From a virus (lineage: Duplodnaviria > Heunggongvirae > Uroviricota > Caudoviricetes), in IMG/VR virus record IMGVR_UViG_2565956720_000008: a DNA stretch of 4,690 bases. One strand, written 5' to 3'. Position 1 is the first letter of the stretch; each line of letters starts with the position of its first letter. The notes below the pieces were generated by a model. That model saw only the letters and a program-made list of their open reading frames with translations, had not been told where the DNA came from and searched no databases. Positions 29 through 4,690 of the stretch are shown here, in pieces. The position numbers were made by a program, and so were the translations under genes.

Positions 29-307
29 TCATCGAGTGTGAGGCTGTATGATTCCATGGTTACCTCTGCTTTTTGAACGCATGTCACGTAACTTCTTAAT
101 GTGTTCTGCCGTTTCGATCTCTTCTGCTATCCGATCTGCATCAGCTTTATTCACAGGTTCAAAGTCATGATTAAAGCGGAACATGCTGGCGATACATGTT
201 CTGCCTTTTCGGATGTAGTGAACTTTGTTGTGGGTAGAACGCAGGATTTTGCAGGGAGTGCCGTGGTGGTCGACGTACCAGGTGTTAGGCAAAATGATTC
301 TGAACAT
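29..307 (-). CDS. hypothetical small phage protein (92 aa) with a His/Cys-containing N-terminal half
   Basis: Minus-strand ORF with ATG at 307 preceded by a GAGGTG Shine-Dalgarno 5 nt upstream (minus strand reads GAGGTGTAAAAATG). Protein-like composition; the overlapping plus-strand ORF 101..334 looks like a shadow frame. No family recognised by eye. Confidence 0.55.
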   Translation of the reverse strand: MFRIILPNTWYVDHHGTPCKILRSTHNKVHYIRKGRTCIASMFRFNHDFEPVNKADADRIAEEIETAEHIKKLRDMRSKSRGNHGIIQPHTR

Positions 308-354: not shown

Positions 355-573
355 TCACAATCCCCATTGTTTGTTCTTAAGTTCGATCTCCTCCTGGCAA
401 CTTGCACAAGTCCGACAACCCTGAACAGCCAGGCGTCTTCGCTCATCTATCGGATCGCCACATTCACAACAATGAGTTGCGGATACAGTCTGGTAGTTCA
501 GACGACGCATTTTTATTGCTGTATTGCGCTGTAATTCTTCGATTTCTGATGCTGAATCAATGATGTCTGCCAT
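355..573 (-). CDS. TraR/DksA-family C4-type zinc-finger protein (72 aa), phage-encoded
   Basis: Translation contains C-x2-C-x17-C-x2-C-Q (CCECGDPIDERRRLAVQGCRTCASCQ), matching the TraR/DksA/YbiI zinc-finger signature (compare the YbiI-type motif CEECG.PIP.ARR...C..CQ as I recall it). Size is typical of phage TraR homologues. Start-site RBS is weak (GGGA about 10 nt upstream). Confidence 0.8.
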   Translation of the reverse strand: MADIIDSASEIEELQRNTAIKMRRLNYQTVSATHCCECGDPIDERRRLAVQGCRTCASCQEEIELKNKQWGL

Positions 574-963: not shown

Positions 964-1155
964 TCATACCTGGTCTCTCTCATCTGCTTCTGCTTTCGCC
1001 ACCATCATTTCCAGCTTTTGTGAAAGGGATGCGGCTAACGTATGAAATTCTTCGTCTGTTTCTACTGGTATTGGCACAAACCTGACTCCAATTTGAGCGA
1101 GGCTATGTGCCATCTCGATACACGTTCTTAACTCAACAGGAGATGCTTTGTGCAT
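964..1155 (-). CDS. hypothetical acidic small protein (63 aa)
   Basis: Minus-strand ORF with ATG at 1155 and a G-rich stretch (ACGGGGGG) 5-9 nt upstream. Acidic, amphipathic-looking sequence. First gene of a leftward two-gene unit that ends at the hairpin near 621-649. Family not recognised by eye. Confidence 0.5.
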   Translation of the reverse strand: MHKASPVELRTCIEMAHSLAQIGVRFVPIPVETDEEFHTLAASLSQKLEMMVAKAEADERDQV

Positions 1156-1348
1156 ACAGCCCCCCGTTTATTATTTATCTCCTCAGCCAGTCGCTGTGCT
1201 TTCAGGGGATTTCGGATAACAGGAAGGCCGGGAAATACCCAGCCTCGCTTTGTAACGGAGTAGACGAAAGTGATCGCGCCTACTCGGGGAAAACATCCTT
1301 TCCTGCGATACGGAGAAGAGTATCCGGGAGCGGTTTTCTGTTTACCAG

Positions 1349-1798
1349 GTGGCGGGGCAGCGTGCCGGAAACGACGATGATTTCGGTGAGGCCACCACCA
1401 CCGCGCTGCGGGCCCGCACAGAGGACGCATTTATTGCCCGTTACCGTCCGATGTATATCAGGCAGACAGGGCAGGCTACGGGGGCTGGCTGTATTGCCCG
1501 TGCTGACTTTGAAGCCCGGCAACGGGCGGCGCGGACGGATGAAACCACCTATGTGGTGCAGGGCTGGCGACAGGGTAACGGTACGCTGTGGCAGCCCAAC
1601 CAGCGGGTGATTGTCTTTGATCCGGTCTGTGGTTTCGACAATACCGAACTGCTTGTTTCGGAAGTCACGTTTACTCAGGACCAGAACGGCACCCTGACGG
1701 AAATCCGTGTCGGCCCGCCTGATGCTTATCTGCCTGAACCCGAAGCCCCCGGCGCGCGGAAAAAGAAAAAAGCCAGAGTACAGGAGGACCCGTTCTGA
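1349..1798 (+). CDS. 5'-truncated remnant of a Mu gp44 / P2 gpD-like tail (baseplate hub) protein; about 150 C-terminal residues, likely pseudogene
   Basis: Sits immediately upstream of the gp45-like gene, with its stop TGA (1796-1798) overlapping that gene's ATG, the position gp44/P holds in the Mu order. The frame is open only back to an in-frame TGA at 1271-1273, with no ATG and only a GTG at 1349. Full-length gpD/gp44 proteins are roughly 380 aa, so the N-terminal part is missing. Family assignment is by position and general C-terminal character, not by alignment. Confidence 0.55.
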   Translation: MAGQRAGNDDDFGEATTTALRARTEDAFIARYRPMYIRQTGQATGAGCIARADFEARQRAARTDETTYVVQGWRQGNGTLWQPNQRVIVFDPVCGFDNTELLVSEVTFTQDQNGTLTEIRVGPPDAYLPEPEAPGARKKKKARVQEDPF

Positions 1799-2346
1799 TG
1801 AGGACGATTGAAGCCATGCAGCGACAACTCCTCGGCCTGATTGGGCGGGCCGTGGTGAAAAGCATCAGTGCCGCCACGAAATGTCAGACCGTGGATGTGT
1901 CCCTGATTGCCGGTGAACCCAAAGCCGGGGTTGAACATCTTGAACCCTACGGTTTTACCGCAAGGGCAAACAGCGGTGCGGAAGCGGTGGTGTTGTTTCC
2001 GGATGGCGACCGTTCTCATGCGGTGGTTGTTACGGTGTCGGACCGTCGCTACCGCCTGAAAGGGCTGCAAACGGGGGAGGTGGCTGTCTATGACGATCAG
2101 GGGCAGTCCGTGACGCTGACCCGGGAGGGGATCGTGGTGGACGGTGCAGGTAAAACGATCACGTTTCGCAATGCGCCCAGAGCACGTTTTGAAATGGACC
2201 TGGAAGTGACCGGACAGGTGAAAGACCTGTGCGACTCCGGCGGCACCACCATGTCAGCGATGCGGCTTGCCTATAACGGGCATCGTCACAGAGAGAACGG
2301 TCAGGGCAGTAACACCGACAAACCTGATAAAGCGATGGAGGCATGA
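1798..2346 (+). CDS. baseplate assembly protein V-like / Mu gp45-like spike protein (182 aa)
   Basis: ATG at 1798 with GGAGG 10 nt upstream. Size and sequence character are typical of gpV/gp45 baseplate spike proteins. Position in the conserved order gp44-gp45-gp46-gp47-gp48-fibre. Confidence 0.8.
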   Translation: MRTIEAMQRQLLGLIGRAVVKSISAATKCQTVDVSLIAGEPKAGVEHLEPYGFTARANSGAEAVVLFPDGDRSHAVVVTVSDRRYRLKGLQTGEVAVYDDQGQSVTLTREGIVVDGAGKTITFRNAPRARFEMDLEVTGQVKDLCDSGGTTMSAMRLAYNGHRHRENGQGSNTDKPDKAMEA

Positions 2347-2771
2347 TGGAACTGTGGCTGACGGTGAACGGTAAACGCACCTGCGCCAGCGCACCGCTGG
2401 ATCCGCTGACCCGCGCCGTGGTGATTTCCCTGTTCACCTGGCGGCGGGCGGAGCCTGATGACAATGCCGACGTCCCGATGGGATGGTGGGGGGATACCTG
2501 GCCTGCGGTACAGAATGACCGTTACGGCTCCCGGCTGTGGCTGCTTCAGCGCAGCAAACTGACCAATCAGCTGGTGCTGACGGTAAGGGGGTATATCCGC
2601 GAATGCCTGCAATGGATGATTGATGACGGCGTGGTGTCCCGTATTGATCTGGATATCCGCCGCACCGGGATTAATGAACTGGGTAACAGTATCACTCTCT
2701 GGCGTCGTGACGGACCGGTAATGATTTCTTTTGATGATCTGTGGAGTGCGATAACGCATGGCGGACAGTGA
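2343..2771 (+). CDS. phage GP46-family baseplate protein (Mu gp46-like), about 141 aa
   Basis: Two tandem ATGs at 2343 and 2346. GGAGG at 2337-2341 favours the ATG at 2346, which overlaps the upstream stop as TGATG. Size and position match Mu gp46. Ends 14 nt inside the next gene. Confidence 0.75.
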   Translation: MMELWLTVNGKRTCASAPLDPLTRAVVISLFTWRRAEPDDNADVPMGWWGDTWPAVQNDRYGSRLWLLQRSKLTNQLVLTVRGYIRECLQWMIDDGVVSRIDLDIRRTGINELGNSITLWRRDGPVMISFDDLWSAITHGGQ

Positions 2772-3816
2772 ATTTCAGCGCCCGACGCTGGCAGAAAATA
2801 TCAGTATGCTCCGTAACGATTTATTCGCCAGGCTGGACGTCAGCGACACGCTCCGGCGCATGGATGAAGACGTGCGGGCAAAGGTGTATGCGGCGGCGCT
2901 GCATACGGTTTACGGGTACATCGATTATCTGGCAATGAACATGCTGCCTGACCTGTGCGATGAGTCCTGGCTGGCGCGACATGCTGCGATGAAACGGTGT
3001 CCGCGCAAGGGGGCCACGGCTGCCAGCGGGTATATGCGCTGGGAAGGTGTCAGCGATGGCCTGAAGGTGACCGCCGGGAGTGTTATTCAGCGCGATGACC
3101 TGGTTCAGTATACTGCAACTGCCGATGCAACCAGCTCCGGTGGTGTCCTGCGCGTGCCGATCGCCTGCTCAAATGCAGGCGCGGTCGGTAACGCTGACGA
3201 CGGTACGGCATTAATCCTGGTCACGCCGGTGAATGGTCTGCCGTCTTCCGGTGTGGCTGACACCCTGACAGGCGGATTTGATACTGAAGAGCTGGAAACG
3301 TGGCGCGCCCGCGTCATTGAGCGGTATTACTGGACGCCGCAGGGCGGGGCTGACGGGGACTATGTCGTCTGGGCTAAAGAAGTGCCCGGCATTACCCGCG
3401 CATGGACATACCGTCACTGGATGGGAACGGGAACTGTCGGTGTGATGATTGCCAGCAGTGACCTGATTAATCCCATTCCGGAAGAATCAACGGAAACGGC
3501 GGCAAGACAACATATCGAGCCACTGGCCCCGGTGGCAGGCTCTGATTTGTATGTGTTCAGGCCGGTGGCACATACGGTGGATTTTCATATCCGCGTGACG
3601 CCGGATACACCAGAAATACGGGCTGCCATCACCGCGGAGTTGCGTTCGTTCCTGCTGCGTGATGGTTATCCGCAGGGAGAACTGAAGGTATCGCGTATCA
3701 GTGAGGCGATTTCCGGTGCGAACGGGGAATACAGCCATCAGTTGCTTGCACCGGCAGACAATATCTCCATTGCAAAAAATGAACTGGCGGTTCTGGGGAC
3801 GATTTCATGGACGTGA
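2758..3816 (+). CDS. baseplate J-like protein (Mu gp47 / P2 gpJ family), 352 aa
   Basis: Long ORF with uniform coding character and high GC. Length and position between the gp46-like and gp48-like genes match the baseplate J wedge protein. Start overlaps the upstream gene and stop overlaps the downstream gene (translational coupling). Confidence 0.85.
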
Positions 3817-4391
3817 CAAACGATGATTACATCCGTCTGTTGTCGGCACTGTTGCCCCCCGGTCCGGCGTGGTCAGCCAGCGATCCGGCGATTGCCGGTG
3901 CGGCACCGTCATTAACCCGCGTTCATCAGCGTGCGGATGCCCTGATGCGGGAGCTGGATCCGCGCACCACCACTGAACTGATAAACCGCTGGGAGCGTCT
4001 GTGCGGTCTGCCGGATGAATGTATTCCGGCAGGGACGCAGACCCTTCGCCAGCGTCAGCAACGGCTGGATGCGAAGGTTAACCTGGCGGGCGGCATCAAC
4101 GAGAATTTTTATCTTGCACAGCTTGCTGCCCTGGGCAGACCAGACGCTACCATCACGCGATACGACAAAAGCACGTTCACCTGCTCATCGGCCTGTACTG
4201 ACGCGGTGAATGCGCCGGAATGGCGGTATTACTGGCAGGTCAACATGCCAGCCGCCACAAACACCACCTGGATGACATGTGGCGATCCCTGTGATTCCGC
4301 GCTGCGTATCTGGGGCGACACCGTTGTCGAGTGTGTGCTTAACAAACTCTGCCCGTCGCATACCTACGTAATTTTTAAATATCCGGAGTAA
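3807..4391 (+). CDS. ymfQ: phage tail protein, Mu gp48 / P2 gpI-like, DUF2313 (YmfQ-like), 194 aa
   Basis: 194-aa ORF directly between the J-like gene and the tail-fibre gene. Length and context match e14 YmfQ-type proteins. The symbol is assigned by homology and context from memory and is not verified by alignment. Confidence 0.8.
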
Positions 4392-4395
4392 TCCA

Positions 4396-4690
4396 TGCAT
4401 CGTATAGACACGAAAACCGCGCAGAAGGATAAGTTCGGCGCGGGTAAGAACGGTTTTACCCGTGGTAACCCCCAGACCGGCACACCTGCCACCGATCTGG
4501 ATGATGACTACTTTGATATGTTGCAGGAAGAACTCTGCAGCGTGGTGGAGGCATCCGGTGCCAGCCTGGAGAAGGAGAGGCACGACCAGCTGCTTACTGC
4601 GCTTCGTGCGCTGCTGTTAAGCCGCAAGAATCCGTTTGGTGATATCAAATCGGATGGCACGGTGAAAACGGCTCTCGAAAACCTTGGTTT
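4396..4690 (+). CDS. side tail fibre protein, N-terminal constant (baseplate-attachment) region; partial, continues past the window end
   Basis: ATG at 4396 with GGAG 6 nt upstream. Translation begins [47 protein letters not shown]..., the conserved N-terminus of Mu S / P2 H / e14 Stf-type fibres. Not in the supplied ORF track because it has no stop inside the window. Confidence 0.85.
4672..4690 (+). other. putative DNA-invertase (Hin/Gin/Cin/Pin family) crossover site, left half plus core and start of right half; truncated by the window end
   Basis: Sequence CTCTCGAAAACC-TT-GGTTT matches the left 12-bp half-site of hixL-type sites (TTCTTGAAAACC, 10 of 12 identical) followed by a 2-bp core and the GGTTT start of the inverted right half-site; the reference site is quoted from memory. 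It lies about 92 codons into the tail-fibre gene, where the constant/variable junction of invertible fibre segments is expected. Confidence 0.45.

Follow-up and report, generated by a model that had tools for sequence, protein, structure and literature searches.

The P segment of the prophage e14 of Escherichia coli K-12 and its Pin inversion system were reportedly described by Plasterk and van de Putte in 1985, and the literature on this segment is said to include work by Mehta et al. from 2004. In K-12 the genes of this region follow the order ymfQ, stfP, tfaP, tfaE, stfE, pinE. The locus analysed here, which begins at the right end of a 4,690-nucleotide stretch of DNA (the window) and continues in near-identical genomes, has in common with e14 the succession of ymfQ, a fibre N-terminus, a crossover site, a fibre C-terminus with its tfa gene, an inverted tfa gene with a second C-terminus, another site, and pin. 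Its left site is identical to that of e14 over all 26 bp (positions 4779–4804 of the K-12 e14 locus, L004), with a single base difference in the right site, and the first 103 residues of K-12 StfP are 98% identical to the fibre encoded here. In both elements an stfE-like open reading frame with a short leader, located beside pin, reads into the silent cassette, and both prophages are defective. The system itself is therefore an already known one, a textbook serine-invertase host-range switch with a site identical to the K-12 one, and the earlier note on this DNA was right to assign it to a known class.

The resemblance to e14 nevertheless has clear limits. Whereas e14 is inserted at icd, this element is found at thrW beside proA, and the segment measures 1,772 bp from outer edge to outer edge as opposed to 1,853 bp in e14. 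The cassettes of the two segments are mostly different, sharing some 307 bp of tfa at 94% identity; cassette A shares 41% identity with the C-terminus of StfE, and cassette B is unrelated to that of StfP. A LEM-3-like GIY-YIG gene occupies the place at which e14 carries the restriction gene mcrA. Taken together, insertion at thrW rather than icd, largely unrelated cassettes and the GIY-YIG gene in lieu of mcrA identify a relative belonging to the e14 family and not e14 itself. Judged by its sequence, then, this element, though distinct from e14, would work just like the e14 P segment and is part of the same switch family.

More distant parallels are found in other invertible systems. The G segment of phage Mu, inverted by Gin, resembles this locus in the gp45–gp48 baseplate genes upstream, in a fibre gene whose constant part is joined to an invertible variable portion, the latter occurring with its assembly gene in two orientations, in an invertase gene just outside the right site, and in sites of a 12-2-12 layout sharing the AAACC/GGTTT core arms. 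The Mu segment differs in its size (~3 kb), in the length of its constant part (170 codons, compared with 97 here), in its half-site sequences and in its core (TC/GA, compared with TT/AA here), and Mu is a functional phage. The C segment of phage P1, with its invertase Cin, is a related system. The Hin/hix system of Salmonella likewise combines 26-bp sites with a serine invertase, but it flips a promoter rather than a coding segment and has no relation to tail fibres.

A further relative shares the site and lacks the switch. The tail module of phage SfV (as well as SfI, SfII and SfIV) shows 96–97% nucleotide identity to the window over positions 3800–4690, with SfV itself at 97%, and this similarity includes the complete left site, which in SfV (L007, NC_003444) is found in identical form at 5373–5398. 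There it precedes one set of fibre and tfa genes, followed by gtr genes and int, so that the fibre is fixed, and no partner site, second cassette or invertase was found at the SfV tail module. By all appearances the SfV site is a solitary fossil crossover site. Since the same site can thus occur with neither partner nor invertase, its presence alone would be no proof of a working switch.

Genes of the window and its terminal crossover site

The window very probably represents the left part of a defective prophage of the e14/SfV family (with a Mu-like tail), residing at thrW in E. coli and ending in a Pin-type site. Its features are as follows.

29–307, minus strand, DUF4222 gene of the early region
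355–573, minus strand, TraR/DksA gene of the early region
964–1155, minus strand, DUF1382 gene of the early region
also minus strand, DUF1317 gene of the early region
1281–1798, plus strand, 5′-truncated baseplate gene, Mu gp44/P-like, annotated as 'incomplete; missing N-terminus' in both near-identical genomes (L001 and L002, see below)
1798–2346, plus strand, Mu gp45/baseplate assembly protein V-like gene (Pfam Phage_Mu_Gp45, E = 1.5e-24)
2343–2771, plus strand, Mu gp46-like baseplate gene (Pfam GP46, E = 2e-32)
2758–3816, plus strand, baseplate J/Mu gp47-like gene (Pfam Baseplate_J, E = 3e-53)
3807–4391, plus strand, YmfQ/Mu gp48-like baseplate wedge gene (Pfam Phage_Mu_Gp48, E = 1e-26; synteny with K-12 e14)
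4395–4690, plus strand, 5′ constant part of the tail-fibre gene, 98 codons and 2 nt, ending in ...KTALENLG
4672–4683, plus strand, outer half-site CTCTCGAAAACC of the left crossover site (consensus scan)
4684–4685, plus strand, core dinucleotide TT (consensus scan)
the last 5 nt, up to 4690, plus strand, start of the inner half-site, GGTTT (consensus scan)

At approximately 1280/1281 the minus-strand genes of the early region directly abut the truncated gp44/P-like gene. This junction marks a deletion that removed the head, tail and lysis genes, and the prophage is gutted in that it is without head, sheath, tail-tube and lysis genes. Among 5,426 complete E. coli genomes the junction is present in only two, the complete chromosomes of strains FORC_082 (L001) and B-JRPT-4119 (L002), while the remaining matching genomes align from window position 1281 onward only; an exact 47-mer spanning the junction had no match in species-representative genomes. 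The whole window is 99.9% identical to both chromosomes, aligns without gaps and with three mismatches to L002 4202–8891, and over its final 891 bases is 100% identical to both. The prophage in these two strains is inserted at a tRNA-Thr gene (thrW), beside proA. In FORC_082 an IS1 element (L001 4493–5190) interrupts the DUF1382 gene at about window positions 1045–1052, and is absent from both the window and B-JRPT-4119.

On the other side of the junction, the gp48/YmfQ gene lies directly 5′ of the fibre gene, as ymfQ does with respect to stfP in e14. The 98 fibre residues encoded in the window match the PHROGs family phrog_1396, 'tail fiber protein' (E = 9e-52), and presumably constitute the N-terminal domain that joins the baseplate and stays fixed while the C-terminus is swapped.

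The last 19 nucleotides of the window (4672–4690, plus strand, CTCTCGAAAACCTTGGTTT) constitute the first 19 of the 26 bp of a left crossover site of the pix type, and match 14 of the 15 specified positions of the consensus for invertase sites. They were located by a scan with TTCTCNNAAACCNNGGTTT, the left part (19 positions) of what we take to be that consensus, which was checked against the phage Mu gix sites TTATCCAAAACCTCGGTTTACAGGAA and TTCCTGTAAACCGAGGTTTTGGATAA at the annotated boundaries of the G segment. With up to two mismatches allowed and both strands scanned, positions 4672–4690 were the sole match in the window (one mismatch), as against 0.01 matches expected by chance from 200 dinucleotide-preserving shuffles; in a separate count, none of 300 mononucleotide shuffles gave a match to TTCTCNNAAACCNNGGTTT. 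The earlier note had read these nucleotides as a left half-site, a core and the start of a right half-site located some 92 codons into the fibre gene. Both parts of this reading hold, as codon 93 contains the first base of the site, at its second position, and codon 97 contains the core TT, with the minor correction that the reading frame starts at ATG 4395 instead of 4396. The site overlaps a conserved peptide of the fibre, ALENLGLGE, so that protein coding could explain part of its conservation. The other 7 of the 26 bp lie beyond the window and were taken from the near-identical genomes.

Partner site, cassettes and invertase beyond the window

Because the window stops inside the left site, the partner site, the cassettes and pin were likewise read from FORC_082 and B-JRPT-4119, both of which carry the full switch. 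Its main features beyond the fibre constant part are given in the coordinates of B-JRPT-4119 (L002).

8873–8898, complete left site, CTCTCGAAAACC-TT-GGTTTGGGAGAA, in full CTCTCGAAAACCTTGGTTTGGGAGAA
10337–10672, minus strand, open reading frame with a short leader
10619–10644, inverted partner site, TTCTCCAAAACC-AA-CGTTTATGAAAA
10699–11253, serine invertase gene, annotated pinE, 184 aa, starting 55 bp beyond the partner site

In both genomes the seven nucleotides that follow the end of the window are GGGAGAA. They complete the inner half-site to GGTTTGGGAGAA, which fits the form GGTTTnnGAnAA anticipated by the earlier note, and the completed left site, the same in both strains, scores 19 of 22 against the consensus. 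The same note had proposed an inverted copy 1.5–3 kb away, two opposed pairs of fibre C-terminus and assembly genes between the copies, and an adjacent serine invertase gene, and each of these is present in the two genomes. The inverted partner closes a segment of 1,772 bp, measured between the outer edges in B-JRPT-4119. On the top strand the cores of the two sites are TT and AA and so agree once the inversion of one site relative to the other is taken into account, as is needed because a serine invertase must religate the ends after a 180-degree rotation. In each scanned locus exactly two 26-mers reach the score threshold, both at the boundaries of the segment, and no 26-mer scoring 18/22 or more occurred in 200 shuffles of L002.

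The two annotated pairs of genes between the sites face each other. In the left part of the segment the fibre continues to a total of 248 aa (cassette A) and is followed by a tail-fibre assembly gene (Caudo_TAP, E = 7.5e-28), and the opposite strand carries a second assembly gene (Caudo_TAP, E = 7e-34) together with a gp53-like fibre C-terminus (cassette B). A Pfam search detected no domain in fibre variant A, the C-terminus of which is grouped by PHROGs with tail-collar fibre proteins. The invertase of B-JRPT-4119 contains a resolvase domain (Resolvase, PF00239, E = 1.5e-51) and a helix-turn-helix domain (HTH_7, PF02796, E = 4e-13), is 96% identical to K-12 PinE, and retains an intact N-terminal GYVRVST motif with the catalytic serine. 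It matches phrog_125, 'DNA invertase' (E = 1.5e-97), and among solved structures it is closest to Mu Gin (3UJ3, E = 4e-95), with a far weaker match to gamma-delta resolvase (1.6e-31).

A Fis-dependent enhancer would be expected near such a gene. In the Hin enhancer the spacing between the Fis-type 15-mers is 48 bp. This enhancer is located ~100 bp from one of the sites, inside the invertase gene (PMC3798978). A Fis-like G-N13-C pair exactly 48 bp apart was not found in pin, but two G-N13-C 15-mers occur at pin nt 22–36 and 71–85, the first with its centre ~96 bp away from that of the right site and the pair 49 bp apart. Both are conserved, with the register kept, in pinE of K-12 and gin of Mu, and both lie within conserved coding sequence. 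A Fis enhancer in the 5′ part of pin is therefore at most a plausible candidate.

These elements suggest a mechanism of the following kind. Dimers of Pin would bind the left site, spanning codons 93–101 of the fibre gene, and the inverted partner 1.77 kb downstream, the sites and the gene being those of the relatives. By analogy with Hin and Gin, Fis bound to the enhancer at the 5′ end of pin would assist synapsis of the two sites, all four strands would be cleaved at the central TT/AA, leaving a 2-nt stagger, and half of the tetramer would rotate by 180 degrees before the ends are rejoined. A 1,748-bp segment would thereby flip, and, as judged from in silico inversion and natural examples, the 97-residue N-terminus would be fused in frame either to the collar-type C-terminus of cassette A, for a fibre of 248 aa, or to the gp53-like one of cassette B, for a fibre of 194 aa, each cassette being followed by its own assembly gene. 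Beyond base 4690 of the window the expected order is GGGAGAA, then an inverted TTCTCCAAAACCAACGTTTATGAAAA about 1.75 kb further on, and then pin. In an intact phage such a switch would alternate the host range. Since the head, sheath, tube and lysis genes are gone, the switch in this prophage would be a retained remnant, as is the one in K-12 e14.

Inversion of the segment and other readings of the site

Inversion was reproduced in silico by reverse-complementing L002 8885–10632, an operation that places cassette B in frame behind the constant N-terminus. The product is a 194-aa fibre with a Gp53-like_C domain (PF21882), followed by a 142-aa Tfa, compared with 248 aa for the native fibre, and the recombinant sites are predicted to be CTCTCGAAAACCTTGGTTTTGGAGAA and TTCTCCCAAACCAACGTTTATGAAAA. 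Precisely these sequences occur in strains 20KM0223N (L003), I4 (L005) and B1S11 (L008). A 600-bp flipped junction is at least 80% covered in 21 genomes and its native counterpart in 71, and for a longer 2,215-bp construct the corresponding numbers are 36 flipped and 47 native; among the matches listed, at least 7 flipped and at least 15 native ones run full-length in a single piece. A direct comparison of the same locus in strains B1S11 and MJ-T (L009) shows collinear flanks at 99.97% identity, enclosing 1,758 bp between the sites that are an exact reverse complement at 99.8% with the inner half-sites swapped. The earlier note had envisaged a constant N-terminal domain followed by an invertible C-terminus with assembly genes, to be seen in both orientations in a population. 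The in-frame 194- and 248-aa fibres bear out the former, both in silico and in natural genomes, and the two orientations are indeed encountered, between sequenced genomes.

Several of the genomes examined in this context have peculiarities of their own. Strain 20KM0223N was considered as a flipped copy of the segment and rejected as such, as it has cassette B in the expressed position but carries a different silent cassette; B1S11 and MJ-T took its place in the comparison. In B1S11 and MJ-T the adjacent recombinase gene is cut to 123 nt (5114–5236 in both L008 and L009), despite the opposite orientations of their segments; the flip separating them either preceded the truncation of the recombinase or was carried out in trans by another Pin paralogue. 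In strain I4 (L005 8114–9012) an IS26 element truncates pinE beside a resistance region with qnrB19/tet(A); the segment is locked in its flipped state, and the right site has one extra change (TTCTCCCAAACCAAGGTTTATGAAAA).

For the e14 segment, inversion has been followed in the laboratory. Sequencing and PCR revealed that both orientations coexist in clonal K-12 cultures (PMC4272514), and inversion has since been quantified by qPCR and assigned to the enzymes PinE and PinQ (Kirigo et al. 2025, PMC12529663). The same study gives the repeats flanking the e14 P segment as TTGGTTTGGGAGAAGG and its complement, which form the inner portion of the site described above.

Our reading of the sequence data, held with considerable confidence, is that the window ends at the left edge of an e14-type Pin switch. 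The strongest competing explanation retains the full architecture but supposes that inversion has ceased in this strain, for instance through lack of pin expression. Such a loss of function would not be out of place in a gutted prophage that cannot make virions; recombinase genes are truncated elsewhere in this family of loci, to 123 nt in B1S11 and MJ-T and by IS26 in I4, and the closest relatives FORC_082 and B-JRPT-4119 have the segment in the same orientation. It is, however, unlikely, given that pin of B-JRPT-4119 is full-length at 184 aa with its GYVRVST motif intact and 96% identity to PinE, that both sites in this strain are intact with matching cores, and that the homologous e14 segment inverts measurably in an equally defective K-12 prophage (PMC4272514, PMC12529663). 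Moreover, other Pin paralogues are reported to be capable of acting in trans (PMC12529663).

The example of SfV raises a different alternative, namely that the site is conserved as fibre coding sequence only, a solitary fossil with a fixed C-terminus and no invertase beside it. SfV does carry the complete left site with one fibre and tfa set and with no second site or recombinase, and in the sampled ~2,000 E. coli genomes that contain the constant region homology stops at the site, after which many different C-termini follow. Viewed by itself the 19-mer could therefore be such a fossil. It is the near-identical genomes that decide in favour of the switch, as both of the 99.9% identical genomes that share the deletion junction possess the partner site, both cassettes and an intact pinE, and a fossil site at the end of the window is accordingly very improbable. 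Chance resemblance of the 19-mer to an invertase site, conceivable in so far as the window shows no more than 19 of 26 bp and the consensus is degenerate, is rejected as exceedingly improbable in view of the 0.01 matches expected against the one observed, the identity of the completed site with the left site of e14, and the exact natural inversions that end at this very position.

Cassette exchange, the short-leader frame and neighbouring genes

Apart from its proposed role in inversion, the e14-type site also coincides with a boundary between exchanged sequences. A 600-bp query (L002 8586–9185, with the site at 288–313) was compared with an even sample drawn from ~2,000 matching genomes. Alignments of the constant part end at query positions 306–318, and alignments restricted to cassette A start at 236 or 295. 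This clustering of alignment ends at the site indicates that it serves as an exchange point of fibre tips among prophages. The part of the query from position 236 or 295 on, representing cassette A, recurs at 97–99% identity in O157:H7 and other strains, joined there to other fibre N-termini, a sign that unrelated prophages have exchanged cassettes at this site or close to it. The 26-bp site is thus also a point of tail-fibre cassette exchange across many E. coli prophages.

The open reading frame at L002 10337–10672 begins with a 14-residue leader (MMPFARYFCIFINVG) whose start lies outside the segment, 26 bp from the start codon of pin; the frame then crosses the right site and continues into the cassette that is silent at the time. 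As it reads the silent cassette, inversion would also toggle a free fibre-tip protein devoid of the baseplate domain. For K-12 e14 the inverted form of stfE, StfE2, has been reported to block adsorption of phage T2 (PMC12529663). By analogy, the switch might be kept because the host uses the short-leader fibre-tip protein to block phage receptors, and not as a relic, a proposal that we consider unlikely. Were it true, the host would gain an invertible receptor-blocking protein, as has been claimed for StfE2 of e14 against T2, and the different pair of cassettes in this prophage would presumably confer a differing phage specificity. A host role of this type, such as phage defence, may be envisaged for switches in dead prophages in general.

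The switch also has consequences for how these regions are assembled and annotated. Assemblies of the locus can legitimately differ in the orientation of the segment, and silent cassettes are labelled inconsistently by PGAP, as 'hypothetical protein', 'integrase' or 'gp53-like'. In several genomes, among them strain I4 (L005 7590–8051), RefSeq names the collar-type fibre cassette, whether silent or expressed, 'integrase', probably a propagated naming error.

Just beyond pin, at L002 11314–12087 on the minus strand, lies the gene containing the LEM-3-like GIY-YIG nuclease domain (PF22945, E = 2e-14). In strains 20KM0223N, B1S11 and MJ-T a DUF262 gene is found in the corresponding slot, which looks like a variable slot for cargo or defence genes.
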